Shown here: piece by piece, positions 16,853-21,954 of the stretch | How the letters are laid out: each line of letters begins with the position of its first letter | Position numbering within the stretch: the first letter of the stretch is position 1 | Origin: Xanthobacteraceae bacterium | GTDB taxonomy: Bacteria; Pseudomonadota; Alphaproteobacteria; Rhizobiales; Xanthobacteraceae | Length of the DNA: 32,000 nucleotides | Direction: 5' to 3' | Assembly (NCBI GenBank): GCA_035295845.1 | Contig: DATGIF010000027.1 | Coordinates: 120,424 to 152,423, forward strand | The notes under the pieces: generated by a model | Database searches by the model: none | Told to the model about the DNA's origin: nothing | Seen by the model: the letters and a program-made list of their open reading frames with translations, nothing else | Made by a program: the position numbers and the translations under genes

Positions 16853-17180
16853 CAGGTCGCCCGGCTCCGGCCGCTCGATGAGATTTAAAAATAGAAACCG
16901 GCTGTGACGCGGATCCGGAGGCGGCGCTTCGCGCCCTTGACAAAACAATTCTTTCGAAACACACGGCCGCCGTTGCGATCGGCGGCTTTCTCTGATCGAT
17001 AAAGAGATCAAGCTGCACGATCCGCCGCTCGGAACCCGCGCACGCCGGCCGCGCGCAGCGGCTGATCCTCAATGCGCGCTGGGGCGAATTCGTTCACGCG
17101 CGATCTTCCAGATGCCCAATTGACGACACCTTCGGTTCACGATTGGTCGCGTTCGTGTGAATGTGCCGGAACGCGTCGCG

Positions 17181-17495
17181 TCAATGCGCGGTGCGTCGCC
17201 GGGCAGCGGCGAGCTTCTCGGCCGACGCGCGCAGGGCACGCTCGTGCTCTTCCAGAATCTTCAGCGTACAGATGAAGACGTCGAGGGTCAGTTCGTCATC
17301 GCGCGTGCACGAGCCGAACGCCTTGAGCCGGGCAATGCTTTCGCGCTGCTGGGCCACGATCAGCCGGCCCTGCGCCACGTGCCGCACCGCAGTGGCGAGG
17401 TCGGTCTCCAATTCGGCCGCGAGAGTTGTCGGCACGGGTCCATTGGCGGCCGGCCCGCCGCTTCCGTATTCTCGTGGCCAACAATCTAACAGCAT
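17181..17495 (-). CDS. Small (104 aa) predicted coiled-coil protein of unknown function
   Basis: ATG 17495 is preceded by GGAGGAGGG. The C-terminal half VRHVAQGRLIVAQQRESIARLKAFG...LKILEEHERALRASAEKL is helical/heptad-like. The N-terminal part of track ORF 17181..17609 overlaps the upstream gene and was rejected. Confidence 0.5.
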   Translation of the reverse strand: MLLDCWPREYGSGGPAANGPVPTTLAAELETDLATAVRHVAQGRLIVAQQRESIARLKAFGSCTRDDELTLDVFICTLKILEEHERALRASAEKLAAARRRTAH

Positions 17496-17722
17496 CCCTC
17501 CTCCGGCAACGGCGGCGAGCGCGGCGAATAATAGGTCGCGTCCGACGGCTGCGCCCACGATGCCGGCGGCTCGTCGGCTTCGGTCACGGTCTCGCGGCAG
17601 GGTTTGCACTGATAGGTGCGCAGTTCGGGTAAGGCACCGATTTTCGGCACCGAGCCCACAAAACCCATCGGCTGGCGGCAGCGCGGGCAGAGCGGAGCGG
17701 ATTGGCGATGGTCCTCGTGCAT
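17486..17722 (-). CDS. Small (78 aa) zinc-ribbon protein (CPRC...CKPC)
   Basis: Two CxxC pairs 25 residues apart (LCPRCRQPM ... YQCKPCRETV). The C-terminal tail is Pro/Ser-rich and ends in CC. Its stop lies 10 nt inside the downstream gene. Confidence 0.55.
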   Translation of the reverse strand: MHEDHRQSAPLCPRCRQPMGFVGSVPKIGALPELRTYQCKPCRETVTEADEPPASWAQPSDATYYSPRSPPLPEEGCC

Positions 17723-17784
17723 CGGCTAGCTGTCCCCCGGGGCGGGCGTCGCGACATTGATCCAGCGCAAAGTTTTAAGGCTGA

Positions 17785-18093
17785 AACCGGCAGCCGCCCC
17801 TGCTCCGCCGGCTTTCCCCCTCTTGCGACAGTAGCGGCGATGACCGGGTTCCGCCCCCGATCTTGAACATCAAAGCGCGGCTCGGCGGCGCCGAGCTGGT
17901 GCGCCGCCGGCTTGACCAGAAGATGCACCAGATCAGCGCCGCGATGCTCGACTTCCGCCTCGGCGACGTCACGGCACTGCCGATTGCCGCGCAACTGCGC
18001 CATCACGGCGTTCCGTTCGGGTTCTTCACCGGCCAGCCGAACACACGCCAGATCGAAAGCGCCTGTCCGGGCAGGGATGGGACGAGAAGCCGA
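17785..18093 (+). pseudogene. Possible decayed response-regulator receiver domain
   Basis: This frame reads SAAMLDFRLGDVTALPIAAQLRHHGVPFGFFTGQ, which resembles the beta3-alpha3-beta4 region of stand-alone receivers (DAALLDxxLGD...PxAxxLxxxGxPFxFxTGY). There is no ATG, the N-terminal acidic pocket is degenerate, and the expected KP motif appears only in another frame (WDEKPIT). Confidence 0.3.
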
Positions 18094-18414
18094 TTACTTC
18101 CCCACCACCACCACCTTGCCGACCATGTTGGGGTGGAATTTGCAGTAATAATCCAGCGTGCCGGTCACCTTGACGACGATGCTCGCCTTGCCCTTTACGG
18201 GGATCATCACGTCGAAGCCGCCGTTGCGGGCGGTCGCGGTGTGGGCGACGATGTCCGCGTTCGTCCACTGTATCGTATCGCCGGCGTGCACAGTGATTTC
18301 TGCCGGCACGAAGGCGAGGTTTTCGATTTTCACCTGAATGGTTTCGGCGCGCGCCGATCCCGCCGCATGGACGAGAACGAGCGCGCCGAACATTCGGGCG
18401 GTCAAGCCACACAT
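18094..18414 (-). CDS. Cupredoxin (plastocyanin/amicyanin-like type-1 blue copper protein), periplasmic
   Basis: Signal peptide MCGLTARMFGALVLVHAAGSARA. The type-1 Cu ligand pattern is present: H (IVAHTA) and C-x2-H-x2-M (YYCKFHPNM). Confidence 0.8.
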   Translation of the reverse strand: MCGLTARMFGALVLVHAAGSARAETIQVKIENLAFVPAEITVHAGDTIQWTNADIVAHTATARNGGFDVMIPVKGKASIVVKVTGTLDYYCKFHPNMVGKVVVVGK

Positions 18415-18424
18415 ATCTGCGCTC

Positions 18425-18949
18425 TTATTTGAGCTTTGCCGCGACTTGCTCGGCGTGCTGCTCGTGACCCTGGAAGATCTTCAGGCCGGTCTGCAGCAGC
18501 TCTTTGAGCTCGGCGTTGCTCGCCGACGGGATGAGCGTCTTCTCCAGCGCGCCGTTGACGGCCTTATGGTAGGCGACCTCGTTCTCGATGTAGGCCTTGT
18601 CGAAGGCGGCGCCGCTCAGCTTGGCGAGCTCGTCGCGTTTTTCCTTGGCCTGTTTGGCCAGCGCCTTGCTGGTATCGTTGTCCTCCGGCGTGACCTTCAG
18701 CTTCTTGACCAGCGCCAATGCCTTGTCGTTGACCGCCTTGTGGTCGCGTTGCATGTCCTGGGCGAAGGCGCGAACCTCCTTGTTCTTGCTCTTCGCCAAC
18801 GCCTGCTTGGCGGCGTCGATATCGAGCTGGCCCGCCGTGTAGGCGATGTGCGCGATCTGCGGATCGGTCGGTTTGGCGCCTTGCGCCGACGCCGTGCCGG
18901 TGGCGATTACCATGGCGGCAAGCGCGCCGGCTATCTTAATGAACTTCAT
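18425..18949 (-). CDS. DUF4142 domain periplasmic protein
   Basis: Signal peptide MKFIKIAGALAAMVIATGTASAQG. Two ferritin-like helical repeats are typical of DUF4142 (VRAFAQDMQRDHKAVNDKA, FDKAYIENEVAYHKAV). The gene ends 10 nt before the cupredoxin start. Confidence 0.8.
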   Translation of the reverse strand: MKFIKIAGALAAMVIATGTASAQGAKPTDPQIAHIAYTAGQLDIDAAKQALAKSKNKEVRAFAQDMQRDHKAVNDKALALVKKLKVTPEDNDTSKALAKQAKEKRDELAKLSGAAFDKAYIENEVAYHKAVNGALEKTLIPSASNAELKELLQTGLKIFQGHEQHAEQVAAKLK

Positions 18950-19007
18950 TAGGAATCTCCCTTCGTCACCGTGACGGCCGAGCGGCCGTGGCTTTGTCTT
19001 GACCGCT

Positions 19008-19036
19008 ATTGGATGGGGCAGCGGCGGAAAGGTTCC
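19008..19036 (-). promoter_or_regulatory. Candidate ECF-type promoter P2: GGAACCTTTCCGCCGCTGCCCCATCCAAT
   Basis: The minus-strand sequence ends 58 nt upstream of the DUF4142 ATG. It shares GGAACCTTT and CATCYAAT, with identical spacing, with the element upstream of the sigma gene. Confidence 0.5.
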
Positions 19037-19063
19037 CGGAATTTTCGTGCCATGGCGGGCTGG

Positions 19064-19131
19064 TCCCGGCCATTCGCGTCTTCAGAGCTTCAGCCGTAAG
19101 ACGTGGATGCCGGGCATGAGGCCGGGCATGA
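19064..19131. repeat. Imperfect GC-rich palindromic (REP-like) element with a tandem GCCGGGCATGA duplication
   Basis: Arms CCCGGCCATTCGCGTCTT and AAGACGTGGATGCCGGG are imperfectly complementary. GCCGGGCATGA is repeated at 19109 and 19121. Confidence 0.4.
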
Positions 19132-19185
19132 CGAGATCAAAGGGAGCCTGGTGCCGATACGAGGTATTTTGTGCGATCCGAGAAA

Positions 19186-19238
19186 GCCGTCGATCGCAAT
19201 GGCAGCAAAAAGTTTCGGCCGCCATTGCAATCGACGGC
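19186..19238 (-). terminator. Long hairpin terminator just downstream of the sigma-factor gene
   Basis: 18-bp arms GCCGTCGATCGCAATGGC / GCCATTGCAATCGACGGC with one mismatch and a 17-nt loop. On the minus strand the stem is followed by TTTCTC. Confidence 0.55.
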
Positions 19239-19256
19239 GGAATGCGACGAGCTAAG

Positions 19257-19958
19257 TTAACCGCCGGCCGCTCCTCCCATCTCCCGCAGCCGCGCGACCA
19301 CCGCGTCGGCCATGCGCTGACAGCGCGCGCCGTCGAACGGGAAGACGTCGGTGAGCAGCGGACCGACCCGGCGTTCCAGATCGCCGCGCAGCAGGGCGCG
19401 CGCGCGGTGCAGCCGGGTTTTCACGGTCTGCGGCCGCAAGCCCAACAGCTCGGCGGTTTCCTCGATGCTCATGTCCTCGACCAGCCGCGCCACCAGGACG
19501 AGGCGAAACGGCTCCGGCAGCGCGTCAATCGCGCGCTCCAGAATTTTGTTGATTTGTTGCTGCGCCATGCTGCGTTCGGGATCGGGTTGCGAGGACCACA
19601 GGGGAAACGGAATGATCTGCGCCTCGGTCACGCCGGCGGTTTCGATGTTCTCGACATTGACCGACGCGCGCCGGCGGCGCAGACGGCCATACGCTTCGTT
19701 GAGCGCAATGCGCGTGAGCCAGGTCGACAGGCTCGACTCGCCGCGAAACTCGGACAGGTGGGTAAACGCCCGCACGTAGCTTTCCTGCACCACGTCCTCG
19801 GCGTCGTGCTCGTCGCGCACGATCGAGCGGGCGAGCCGAAACAGGCGCCGGTTGTTCTGCTGCACGATGGTGCGCAGCGCCGTCTCCTCGCCGCGCCGGG
19901 CCCGGGCCAGAAGATCGTCCTGCATCGCCAGCGCGGCCGTCATCTGCTGCTTGGCCAT
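19257..19958 (-). CDS. ECF (sigma-70 family group 4) RNA polymerase sigma factor with a short C-terminal extension
   Basis: Region 2 is DAEDVVQESYVRAFTHLSEFRGESSLSTWLTRIALNEA. Region 4 is LPEPFRLVLVARLVEDMSIEETAELLGLRPQTVKTRLHRAR. About 35 extra residues follow (VGPLLTDVFPFDGARCQRMADAVVARLREMGG). An AAGAGG RBS precedes the start. Confidence 0.9.
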   Translation of the reverse strand: MAKQQMTAALAMQDDLLARARRGEETALRTIVQQNNRRLFRLARSIVRDEHDAEDVVQESYVRAFTHLSEFRGESSLSTWLTRIALNEAYGRLRRRRASVNVENIETAGVTEAQIIPFPLWSSQPDPERSMAQQQINKILERAIDALPEPFRLVLVARLVEDMSIEETAELLGLRPQTVKTRLHRARALLRGDLERRVGPLLTDVFPFDGARCQRMADAVVARLREMGGAAGG

Positions 19959-19999
19959 TCCGCCTCTTTCGGTTCGCGACTTTTGCTGTTCGGACGCGC

Positions 20000-20028
20000 A
20001 TTAGATGCCGGCAGCGCCAAAAGGTTCC
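20000..20028 (-). promoter_or_regulatory. Candidate autoregulatory ECF-type promoter P1: GGAACCTTTTGGCGCTGCCGGCATCTAAT
   Basis: The minus-strand sequence ends 41 nt upstream of the sigma ATG. Its architecture matches P2 at 19008..19036. Confidence 0.5.
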
Positions 20029-20162
20029 TGGAAATCCCGCTCGAGCACCGGGCCTCGCCGTGCCGGCGCCATAATCCACCATAACCCTCGGAGCGGGCTT
20101 CACAATCCCGTCACCTCTGCCTATAAACTAACGGCCAAGGCCGCCTAGCGGCAACGAGTCGT

Positions 20163-20762
20163 GTGCCAGGAGCCAACTTGAACGTCCACGTCCCCGCCCC
20201 GTCAACGGCGCCCTTGGTCGGCCCGTCCGGATTCCCGGCACTGGTGCTCAACGCCGACTTTCGCCCGCTGAGCTACTACCCGCTGTCGCTGTGGTCCTGG
20301 CAGGACGCCATCAAGGCCGTCTTCCTGGAGCGGGTCAACATCGTCGCCAACTACGACCGCGCGGTGCGCAGCCCGAGCCTGGAGATGAAGCTGCCCAGCG
20401 TGGTGTCGCTGAAGACCTACGTGAAGCCGTCGACGCACCCGGCATTCACGCGCTTCAACGTGTTCCTGCGCGACCGCTTCGTCTGCCAGTATTGCGGCGC
20501 CCGCGACGACCTGACGTTCGATCACCTGCTGCCGCGTTCGCGCGGCGGCCACACCACGTGGGACAACGTCGTCGCCGCCTGCTCGCCCTGCAACCTGCGC
20601 AAGGGCAACATGACGATGGCGGAGTCCAACATGTGGCCGTCGCAAAAGCCGTTCCAGCCGTCGGTGCAGCACCTGCACCGCAACGGCCGGCTGTTTCCGC
20701 CGAACTATCTGCACGACAGCTGGCTCGACTATCTGTATTGGGACACCGAGCTCGATCCGTAA
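20163..20762 (+). CDS. HNH endonuclease family protein
   Basis: HNH motif CQYCGARDDLTFDHLLPRSRGGHTTWDNVVAACSPCNLRKG. The track start is GTG 20163. A TTG at 20177 preceded by GGAG is an alternative. Confidence 0.85.
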   Translation: MPGANLNVHVPAPSTAPLVGPSGFPALVLNADFRPLSYYPLSLWSWQDAIKAVFLERVNIVANYDRAVRSPSLEMKLPSVVSLKTYVKPSTHPAFTRFNVFLRDRFVCQYCGARDDLTFDHLLPRSRGGHTTWDNVVAACSPCNLRKGNMTMAESNMWPSQKPFQPSVQHLHRNGRLFPPNYLHDSWLDYLYWDTELDP

Positions 20763-20774
20763 GCTCTGACTGTC

Positions 20775-20861
20775 ATCGTCCGCGCAAGCGGACGATCCAG
20801 TAACCTCAGCGATCGATTTTCTTGCGCAGTGTTTACTGGATGTCCCGCTTTCGCGAGACAT
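20775..20861. repeat. Inverted pair of REP-like hairpins between convergent genes
   Basis: Hairpin 1 is ATCGTCCGC-GCAA-GCGGACGAT (20775-20796). Hairpin 2 is ATGTCCCGC-TTTC-GCGAGACAT (20840-20861). Each is flanked by CCAGTAA / TTACTGG in inverted orientation. They probably act as a bidirectional terminator. Confidence 0.5.
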
Positions 20862-20880
20862 GACACGCACCAATAAGCAT

Positions 20881-21954
20881 CTACTCCGCCGCTTCCTTGC
20901 GCACGCCGGCAAACGCCGGGGCGACTTCGGCCATGAAGCGCGACATCTCGTCTTTGACCTGATTGTGCGGCTTCAAGCCGACATTGGCGTAAAGGATCAC
21001 CTCGGCAATTCCGGCGGCCTCGACTTTCTTCAAGGTCTCGATCATGCGCGCCGGCGAGCCGAGCAGCACGGAATTTTCCGTCAAATCCTCGGGCTTCACC
21101 TTCTGCAGGCGGTCGACGATGTCGATGAAATAGCGGTAGCTCGGCGGCGCGGTTTTGGGATCGCCCGGGAACGCCGGGATCACGCACTCTTTATAGTAGC
21201 GAATCTGCCGGGCGCGAGCAGCGTCCTCGGCGGCCTTGTCGTCAGCGAAATGCAAAAAATAGCTGCACATCATGCGGCCCGGCTTCTTGCCGTGCCTGAT
21301 GCAGGTCTCGTTATAGAGGTCGGCGACCTGCTTGAGGCCGCCGAAGCTCATGGCGGCGGCGAACGGCGCCACGATCAGGCTGCAGCCGAGCCGCGCCGCG
21401 AGCTCGATCGACGGTTTCGAGAATGAGCCGACGTAGGTCGGCAGCGGCCGCTGCACCGGCTTCGGCGTGATGCGCACGTCGTCAAACGAATAATATTTGC
21501 CGTGGTGCGAGATGCGGCCCTCGGCCGCCCAGAGCTTGCGCACGAGCTCGAGGCCTTCCTCGAAGATGCCCTGGTTGTCGTCGAACGAGACGTGGAACGG
21601 CGCGTATTCGCGCTTGTCGTAGCCGCGGCCGCAGGCGAAATCGACGCGGCCGCCGGACAAAAGATCGAGCGTCGCCCATTGTTCGGCGACCCGGATCGGA
21701 TGATGCAGCGGCAGCACGGTGACGGCCGGCGCCAGCCGGATGCGCTTGGTGTTGGCCGCCACATAGGCCAGCACCATGTCGGGGCAGGACAGCACGCCGA
21801 GCGAGTTGAAATGATGCTCGCCGATCCAGGCCGAGTGCATGCCGACCTTCTCGGCATGCAGCGCCTCGGCGGTGATGTCGGCGACGAACTGGTTCGAGGA
21901 GCGCGTGTTGACGGCGTAATGATTGTCGCTGAGCGTAAAATAGCCGAAGTCCAT
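20881..21954 (-). CDS. LLM-class (luciferase-like) flavin-dependent oxidoreductase
   Basis: ATG 21954 is preceded by GGGAGGG. The product begins MDFGYFTLSDNHY...MHSAWIGEHHFNSLG and has a TIM-barrel LLM signature. The rest of track ORF 20881..23430 is read-through antisense/out of frame with the UbiD gene. Confidence 0.85.
   Translation of the reverse strand: MDFGYFTLSDNHYAVNTRSSNQFVADITAEALHAEKVGMHSAWIGEHHFNSLGVLSCPDMVLAYVAANTKRIRLAPAVTVLPLHHPIRVAEQWATLDLLSGGRVDFACGRGYDKREYAPFHVSFDDNQGIFEEGLELVRKLWAAEGRISHHGKYYSFDDVRITPKPVQRPLPTYVGSFSKPSIELAARLGCSLIVAPFAAAMSFGGLKQVADLYNETCIRHGKKPGRMMCSYFLHFADDKAAEDAARARQIRYYKECVIPAFPGDPKTAPPSYRYFIDIVDRLQKVKPEDLTENSVLLGSPARMIETLKKVEAAGIAEVILYANVGLKPHNQVKDEMSRFMAEVAPAFAGVRKEAAE

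Follow-up and report, generated by a model that had tools for sequence, protein, structure and literature searches.

Here we analyze a regulatory locus on the minus strand of a 32,000-nt stretch of DNA from a Xanthobacteraceae metagenome-assembled genome (MAG); this full stretch is referred to throughout as the window. The locus encodes an extracytoplasmic function (ECF) sigma factor, a DUF4142 protein and a type-1 copper cupredoxin (HLL28264.1 for the sigma factor, HLL28263.1 and HLL28262.1 for the other two proteins in the source assembly), and carries one copy of a promoter-like 29-mer before the sigma gene and another before the DUF4142 gene. Such an arrangement, with its duplicated promoter and missing anti-sigma gene, was already published in 2018 for the rpoE8-SMb20593-amcY module of Sinorhizobium meliloti. 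The window adds one Xanthobacteraceae MAG member, with a long hairpin-bearing spacer and an RCQ in place of RCE/D as its local peculiarities, and the interest of the system lies less in this locus than in how sigma factors of this family are activated. The features considered here are the following.

20000..20028, minus strand: putative ECF29-type promoter of the sigma gene, 29-mer GGAACCTTTTGGCGCTGCCGGCATCTAAT, with -35 GGAACC and -10 GCATCTAA
19257..19958, minus strand: ECF29-group sigma factor, 233 aa, HLL28264.1, with Pfam Sigma70_r2 and Sigma70_r4_2 and NCBIfam NF008888
19287..19364, minus strand: coding region of the conserved C-terminal extension of the sigma factor, residues 199-224 (GPLLTDVFPFDGARCQRMADAVVARL), with the Cys213 codon at 19320-19322
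19186..19238, minus strand: strong hairpin (inverted repeat I1) in the sigma-DUF4142 spacer, -46 kcal/mol, z = -7.2
19008..19036, minus strand: putative ECF29-type promoter of the DUF4142-cupredoxin operon, 29-mer GGAACCTTTCCGCCGCTGCCCCATCCAAT, with -35 GGGAACC and -10 CCATCCAA
18425..18949, minus strand: DUF4142 protein, 174 aa, with putative signal peptide (Pfam PF13628, 7.5e-39; weak DUF305 match)
18094..18414, minus strand: type-1 copper cupredoxin, 106 aa, with putative signal peptide (Pfam Cupredoxin_1 and Copper-bind)

The sigma factor and its duplicated promoter motif

The sigma factor has the two-domain ECF architecture, with Sigma70_r2 at residues 31-97, Sigma70_r4_2 at residues 139-190 and neither region 3 nor region 1.1. 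As a proxy for ECF29 group assignment we used NCBIfam NF008888 (PRK11922), which the protein matches with 290.5 bits against a cutoff of 204. Since this match runs from profile position 7 to 228 out of 231 and so spans the full length, the family model takes in the C-terminal tail. The two ECF29 representatives in the library of Rhodius et al. 2013 (PMC3817407), ECF29_371 of Mesorhizobium loti and ECF29_2688 of Colwellia, obtain 306 and 248 bits on the same model and S. meliloti RpoE8 obtains 323, next to 290 for the window protein, all above the 204 cutoff. Identity to the window protein is 56% for ECF29_371, 29% for ECF29_2688 and 52% for RpoE8, in alignments that all run through the C-terminal extension. 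Judged by its sequence, the protein is a member of group ECF29, which according to Casas-Pastor et al. 2021 is marked by a C-terminal extension of ~30 aa bearing a conserved RCE/D, lacks a putative anti-sigma factor and had no member studied by experiment (PMC7826278).

Several other assignments were considered and discarded. Against the RpoE-type ECF02 model TIGR02939 the protein scores 110 bits (cutoff 236), and no rseA-type anti-sigma gene is adjacent. The EcfG general stress sigma factors (ECF15) read GGAAC-N16-17-CGTT, whereas the -10 element here is CATC(C/T)AA and no nepR/phyR-like genes are found among the neighbours. CorE-like metal-sensing factors (ECF238) carry several Cys in their extension, in contrast to the single Cys (C213) of the window protein. 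EcfQ and EcfF of Bradyrhizobium belong to ECF33 and ECF16 and are not counterparts, and the Azospirillum 'RpoE8' is an unrelated sigma factor that shares the name only.

An earlier reading of this DNA, made from the letters alone (the sequence-only reading), had placed one 29-mer before each unit, and its sequences, positions and distances to the start codons proved exact: 41 nt separate the end of GGAACCTTTTGGCGCTGCCGGCATCTAAT (20028-20000) from the sigma ATG at 19958, and 58 nt separate the end of GGAACCTTTCCGCCGCTGCCCCATCCAAT (19036-19008) from the DUF4142 ATG at 18949. Read on the minus strand, both 29-mers contain GGAACCTTT-N12-CATCYAAT, and this two-block pattern finds no window site beyond these two, even at 3 mismatches. 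The scan matrix originally proposed has to be amended, because its N13 misses one site while an N12 spacer finds both. The common spacing GGAAC-N18-TCYAA is borne out; this looser pattern matches twice in 32 kb against 0.07 matches expected from shuffles, and 0/100 shuffles gave two. The transcription start site (TSS) of the sigma-gene promoter is predicted to lie ~6-9 nt downstream of 20000..20028. In alignments with relatives at 91%, 73% and 72% identity, both motifs stand out as invariant islands within otherwise diverged spacers.

The same elements are known from S. meliloti, where rpoE8 (SMb20592), SMb20593 and amcY (amicyanin) follow each other in this order, a TSS has been mapped at the -35 GGGAAC / -10 GCATCCAA motif upstream of rpoE8, and a perfect second copy of GGGAAC/GCATCCAA lies in the 77-nt rpoE8-SMb20593 spacer, with no candidate anti-sigma factor (Lang et al. 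2018, PMC6180224). We located the published promoters GGGAACATTTCCGGAGATAGGGCATCCAA (rpoE8) and GGGAACGTTTCGAGCCGCGAAGCATCCAA (SMb20593) in pSymB, at positions 2388 and 3123 of locus L081. Both have the same spacing as the window sites, as does Pecf29_up371 (CCGGGAACCTTTTGTCGGCACGAACATCCAAT), which Rhodius et al. 2013 give as ...CCGGGAACCTTTTGTCGGCACGAACATCCAATTGG... (PMC3817407); the sigma-gene site of the window, in particular, reads aGGAACC-N14-GCATCTAA at 20028-20001, with the spacing of the published rpoE8 and Pecf29_up371 promoters. The initial identification of an ECF sigma factor with a duplicated ECF-type promoter is thus upheld, in that the 29-mers fit the published ECF29 consensus with the same spacing (PMC6180224).

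Downstream of the second motif, the cupredoxin gene begins 10 nt past the DUF4142 stop codon, and the type-1 copper ligands His58, Cys91, His94 and Met97 can be read from its product. Both proteins had been considered periplasmic, which agrees with the signal-peptide-like N-termini that we recognized on both by inspection. At 74% and 45% identity, the DUF4142 protein and the cupredoxin correspond to orthologues of SMb20593 and AmcY, respectively. Across the genome loci listed in the comparison below, identity is 62-81% for DUF4142, 49-60% for the sigma factor and 39-56% for the cupredoxin; DUF4142 is much better conserved across families than either of its partners, which is unusual for a secreted protein without known function. 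A PDB sequence search with DUF4142 gave no match, and no function was found in the literature on DUF4142.

Distribution of the motif in genomes and metagenomes

Related loci were obtained from a scan of species-representative genomes, which yielded at least 80 loci with sigma factors of at most 60% identity among the matches listed; the closer relatives (91%, 73% and 72% identity) were added through exact-protein look-up, and all counts given here refer to the loci so listed. In the 1.1 Mb that the related loci cover, we counted 100 copies of the strict motif GGAAC-N15-17-N[AG]TCNAA, whereas shuffles gave 0-7. DUF4142 lies near an extension-bearing sigma factor in 34 loci (a count that includes L081-L087 and the window); a cupredoxin is present in 34/34, and at least 30 of the 34 have the strict motif no more than 200 nt ahead of the DUF4142 start. 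For the sigma start the corresponding figure is 36 of 66 loci, and in many of the remaining ones the motif lies ~1 kb upstream, ahead of a further gene situated before the sigma gene. The double placement of the motif first seen in the window, once before the sigma gene and once before the DUF4142-cupredoxin pair, is therefore kept across many genomes, with a consensus of GGAACCTTtt-N10-GCATC(C/T)AA upstream of the sigma gene and GGAAC(C/G)Ttt-N-gCATCCAA upstream of DUF4142.

The two positions differ in one base. Within the clade of the window (L082-L087 and the window itself), the sigma promoter always reads CATCTAA and the DUF4142 promoter CATCCAA, and among all listed loci the T is found in 10/29 sigma sites (including L005, L007, L008, L018, L022 and L024) versus 0/26 DUF4142 sites. 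This contrast possibly reflects a built-in difference in promoter strength.

The commonest gene order is sigma-DUF4142-cupredoxin, and about half of the ECF29 loci have no DUF4142 gene. Elsewhere the pair is divergent (Rhodanobacter, L045), convergent (Phenylobacterium, L049) or located 2.4 kb downstream (Afipia, L011). Three Rhizobium loci (L027-L029) show the order DUF4142-cupredoxin-sigma with a single motif ahead of DUF4142, so that the sigma gene there seems to sit at the end of the very operon that it targets. The trio also occurs in many non-nodulating taxa, among them Aliidongia (L001), Afipia (L011), Hyphomicrobium (L016, L023), the gammaproteobacterium Rhodanobacter (L045) and Phenylobacterium (L049). 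It is hence more widespread than the literature suggests, where it has been called uncommon outside plant-nodulating bacteria. The DUF4142-cupredoxin pair emerges as the core target of ECF29 and is found far beyond nodulating bacteria.

Metagenome contigs were scanned for GGGAACCTTT-N12-CATCCAA, a pattern of 17 specified bases with no gene anchor, which returned 82 copies. As many as 70 of these lie directly upstream of the start codon of a small recurring set of genes, always in sense orientation. The downstream genes were as follows.

DUF4142: 31/82 copies
ECF29 sigma factor: 21/82 copies
GTP cyclohydrolase I (FolE): 9/82 copies
c-type cytochrome: 3/82 copies
TTHB210-like protein: 2/82 copies
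globin: 2/82 copies
DUF2231 (by blastp): 2/82 copies
others assigned by Pfam (MsrA, patatin-like, a third DUF2231): 3/82 copies
short or truncated open reading frames (ORFs) without assignment: 8/82 copies
contig end too near for an ORF call: 1/82 copies

These counts bear directly on the possibility, raised as a refuting test in the sequence-only reading, that the 29-mer is not a promoter but a dispersed repeat of the repetitive extragenic palindromic (REP) type. With 70/82 copies ahead of recurring gene starts in sense orientation, only two copies in 32 kb and a spacer between the two blocks that is not conserved, the motif is not a REP element, and this explanation can be given practically no credence.

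Across the genome loci (L008, L011, L012, L017, L024, L025, L033, L038, L042, L048, L049) and the metagenome loci (L088-L167), the motif also precedes genes for FolE, a Rieske-FAD oxidoreductase, a TTHB210-like periplasmic protein, a Tll0287-like haem protein, DUF2231, a truncated globin, a c-type cytochrome and, once, MsrA. These targets point to a redox-themed ECF29 pan-regulon, several of whose proteins are periplasmic, and the ECF29 promoter is strict enough for such a pan-regulon to be defined by sequence alone.

The spacer between the sigma and DUF4142 genes spans 307 nt in the window and 82-92 nt in the 73% relatives, and the strong hairpin it contains (19186-19238), which the sequence-only reading had pointed out, is real and stronger than claimed (-46 kcal/mol, z = -7.2). 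The hairpin is followed only by UUUCU and is not called by a simple terminator scan, because its loop is too long and it has no U tract; it can only be called a candidate terminator between two units. It is kept in the 91% relatives (L082, L084) and missing in the 73% relatives, and within the 32-kb window it does not behave as a dispersed repeat, which together indicate a clade-specific insertion in the spacer. As read from these loci, the spacer is short throughout the family as a rule, and the second promoter follows directly on the sigma stop codon. A further insertion at 19090-19170, inside which lies a tandem 12-mer (GATGCCGGGCAT/GAGGCCGGGCAT, 19106-19129), is specific to the window and absent even in the 91% relatives. 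An Rfam search of 17000-21000 gave one chance-level NiCo match (E = 0.59), inside the HNH gene.

A hairpin without a U tract, missing in relatives whose spacer measures 82-92 nt, would be compatible with a single sigma-DUF4142-cupredoxin operon transcribed from the upstream promoter, in which the second motif is weak or vestigial and the hairpin acts as an RNA-stability or processing element; the Rhizobium order with one motif in front and the failure to find a TSS for SMb20593 in S. meliloti point the same way. The second motif, however, is as strictly conserved as the first (at least 30 of the 34 loci), and DUF4142 is the commonest context of the motif in metagenomes (31/82), a persistence not expected of a vestigial site. 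We consider a single operon quite unlikely.

The C-terminal extension and the control of the sigma factor

The sequence-only reading had described some 35 residues past region 4 with one Cys; the single Cys stands, and the length does not, since region 4 as defined by Pfam leaves about 40 residues behind it. The whole extension covers residues ~199-233, its conserved portion residues 199-224, and the only Cys of the protein, C213, lies within ...FPFDGARCQRMADAVVARL. Among 31 close homologues F208, G210, R212, C213 and R215 are invariant, and the sigma2-sigma4 linker (AQIIPFP...DPER) is unusually conserved as well. A wider set of 66 homologues, translated from genome loci among the matches listed, comprises Alpha- and Gammaproteobacteria, Acidobacteria, Myxococcota, Planctomycetes and one Dadabacteria MAG; here conservation reaches at least 90% at each of F206, F208, R212, C213 and V220. 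The residue following RC varies among relatives (E, D, Q, A, N and others; Q in the window), and the strict signature is therefore RC rather than RCE/D. The strictly conserved features of the extension thus amount to two Phe, the Arg-Cys pair and one Val, which are direct targets for point mutants. AlphaFold, run with the 31-sequence alignment, predicts a helix at residues 209-226 with a predicted local distance difference test (pLDDT) score of 72 and a predicted template modelling (pTM) score of 0.46, two of the five models being at or below 51. On this model the conserved C213 and V220 would share one helix face with M216 and L224, after FPF and Arg212, in a helix that would be amphipathic. 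In a PDB sequence search, solved ECF structures align only up to sigma residue ~200.

Taking these results together, we favour, at a probability of roughly three in four, the reading that the locus is the Xanthobacteraceae orthologue of rpoE8-SMb20593-amcY, and that its sigma factor reads GGGAACCTTT-N12-CATC(C/T)AA in front of itself and of the DUF4142-cupredoxin operon, without an anti-sigma gene. The promoter copy before the sigma gene would then confer positive autoregulation, the second copy would drive a two-gene operon for the periplasmic DUF4142 protein and the periplasmic blue-copper cupredoxin, and sigma activity might, with less than even probability for this step, be gated via the conserved C-terminal amphipathic helix carrying the invariant Arg212-Cys213. 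Autoregulation and control of a second unit are supported by the cognate activation observed in E. coli with a 56% relative, the TSS at the motif in S. meliloti and the strict co-occurrence of sigma factor and motif, from which we infer that the window sigma factor reads both promoters in its own host. In the E. coli experiments, induction of ECF29_371 raised the output of Pecf29_up371 from ~6 to ~112 arbitrary units, and the same promoter was activated 31- and 49-fold by two ECF02 sigma factors and ~4-fold by ECF15 sigma factors (PMC3817407). The activation by RpoE-type ECF02 factors also accords with the RpoE-like layout that had been recognized in the 29-mers.

Several observations weigh against this reading. 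In S. meliloti, 126-fold overexpression of rpoE8 left SMb20593 and all other genes uninduced, and mapping gave no TSS for SMb20593 (PMC6180224), which leaves the second promoter a predicted one; since overexpressed RpoE8 is inert in its own host, it must either be kept inactive there or require a signal. The ECF02 sigma factors activate the ECF29 promoter more than the cognate sigma factor does in E. coli, and another sigma factor could therefore read the sites. The full-length M. loti sigma factor is active in E. coli, which speaks against the extension as a simple lock or autoinhibitor. Finally, the extension of the window protein has RCQ where the published motif is RCE/D, and the AlphaFold model, only moderate by its scores, provides no usable placement of the extension.

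The cross-activation in E. coli and the lack of any induction by overexpressed RpoE8 would also fit a scheme in which both promoters are read mainly by another ECF sigma factor of the host, general-stress or RpoE-like, with the local sigma factor as a downstream node of the cascade. The motif, however, accompanies ECF29 sigma genes in Alpha- as well as Gammaproteobacteria, ECF29_371 activates its own promoter, and the -10 element CATCCAA is unlike the CGTT of EcfG. ECF02 sigma factors are, moreover, not generally known from Alphaproteobacteria. This scheme strikes us as rather unlikely.

The absence of an adjacent anti-sigma gene, remarked upon from the start, is corroborated by Pfam and NCBIfam searches, which detected no anti-sigma domain among the neighbours of the sigma gene (HNH, DUF4142, cupredoxin and small downstream ORFs), and no such gene is conserved nearby in relatives; the same has been stated for the whole ECF29 group (PMC7826278, PMC6180224). 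The missing negative regulator could in principle be the DUF4142 protein itself, acting as an unorthodox anti-sigma factor. It is co-conserved with the sigma factor and surpasses it in conservation (62-81% vs 49-60% identity), and amcY rises ~3-fold in a deletion of rpoE8-SMb20593 (PMC6180224). As judged from its sequence, it nevertheless has a signal peptide that can be cleaved off and neither a transmembrane nor a cytoplasmic segment, which precludes direct contact with a cytoplasmic sigma factor, about half of the ECF29 loci have no DUF4142, and Lang et al. 2018 see no anti-sigma features in it (PMC6180224). A role of this kind is very improbable.

Within the favoured reading, the C-terminal helix may tentatively be regarded as a regulatory surface, either as a switch that responds to redox state or metals through its thiol or as a site where an unlinked regulator docks. 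The switch is plausible because an Arg beside the Cys would favour a reactive thiolate, and the redox flavour of the pan-regulon fits it circumstantially. A more speculative extension of this idea, which we find doubtful, is that ECF29 sigma factors are self-contained, anti-sigma-free sensors of redox state (or copper). The invariant Arg-Cys would lie on the conserved hydrophobic side of the helix; oxidation, thiolation or metal binding of the Cys thiol would alter the docking of the helix on the sigma core or RNA polymerase, and the small regulon so switched would consist of periplasmic redox proteins, with DUF4142-cupredoxin here and FolE, truncated globin, cytochrome c, DUF2231 and MsrA elsewhere. 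If true, this would explain the lack of induction on plain overexpression of RpoE8 in S. meliloti.

A divergent HNH endonuclease gene is kept only in close relatives (91%, 73% and 72%), and none of the 80 more distant loci listed contains it. Between it and the sigma promoter, a block of ~50 nt (20079-20130) is almost invariant among the 72-91% relatives; it contains TTCACA-N17-TATAAA at 20099-20127 (plus strand), followed by a small GC hairpin, and probably serves the HNH gene as its sigma70-type promoter and leader. A promoter scan misses this site because its -10 hexamer ends in A. The flank downstream of the trio differs in each relative, holding a response regulator with a CheB/CheR-HWE kinase, an alpha/beta hydrolase or a GMC oxidoreductase. 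In the window, 17905-18072 (plus strand) is the remnant of a response-regulator receiver gene, with 62% identity to residues 44-104 of a 126-aa regulator whose gene is convergent to the cupredoxin gene in the 91% relatives; with the N-terminal part of the regulator and the CheB/CheR-HWE kinase gene missing, this flank has been rearranged or deleted. A 78-aa CxxC...CxxC ORF at 17486-17722 was rejected as an anti-sigma candidate, its synteny not being conserved and its domain not being of the zinc-binding anti-sigma (ZAS) type.

Comparison with known systems

The closest known system is the RpoE8 module of S. meliloti, which has the same three genes in the same order (52% identity for the sigma factor, 74% for DUF4142 and 45% for the cupredoxin), GGGAAC/GCATCCAA both before the sigma gene and in the sigma-DUF4142 spacer, no anti-sigma gene and an FPFxGxRC extension. 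The two differ in the spacer (307 nt with a strong hairpin in the window vs 77 nt in S. meliloti), in the divergent neighbour (HNH endonuclease vs acyP), in the residue after the Arg-Cys pair (RCQ vs RCE) and in the host of the window, a non-nodulating Xanthobacteraceae MAG. A binding site for PhaR/AniA in the rpoE8-acyP intergenic region (S. meliloti pSymB 1605799-1605819; PMC12542648) hints at an extra transcriptional input in Sinorhizobium; no palindrome like this site is visible upstream of the window sigma gene.

ECF29_371 of M. loti shares 56% identity with the window sigma factor, extension included, and the core of its promoter, GGGAACCTTTT...CATCCAAT, is nearly identical. Together with Pecf29_up371 it forms the sole ECF29 sigma-promoter pair with experimental activity, tested only in E. 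coli and with a synthetic UP element.

Two further systems resemble the locus in their mode of control. CorE and CorE2 of Myxococcus xanthus (ECF44, now ECF238) are likewise free of an anti-sigma factor and possess a short Cys-containing C-terminal sensor with a link to copper and other metals; CorE-type extensions, however, are Cys-rich, with Cys also in the linker, whereas the window sigma factor has one Cys and belongs to another sequence family, with NF008888 as its top NCBIfam match. In ECF41 and ECF42 a fused C-terminal part replaces the anti-sigma factor and contacts the sigma2-sigma4 linker, which is also conserved in the window protein, but these are folded domains of 100-200 residues (SnoaL-like, TPR), as opposed to the single ~18-residue helix of the window extension.

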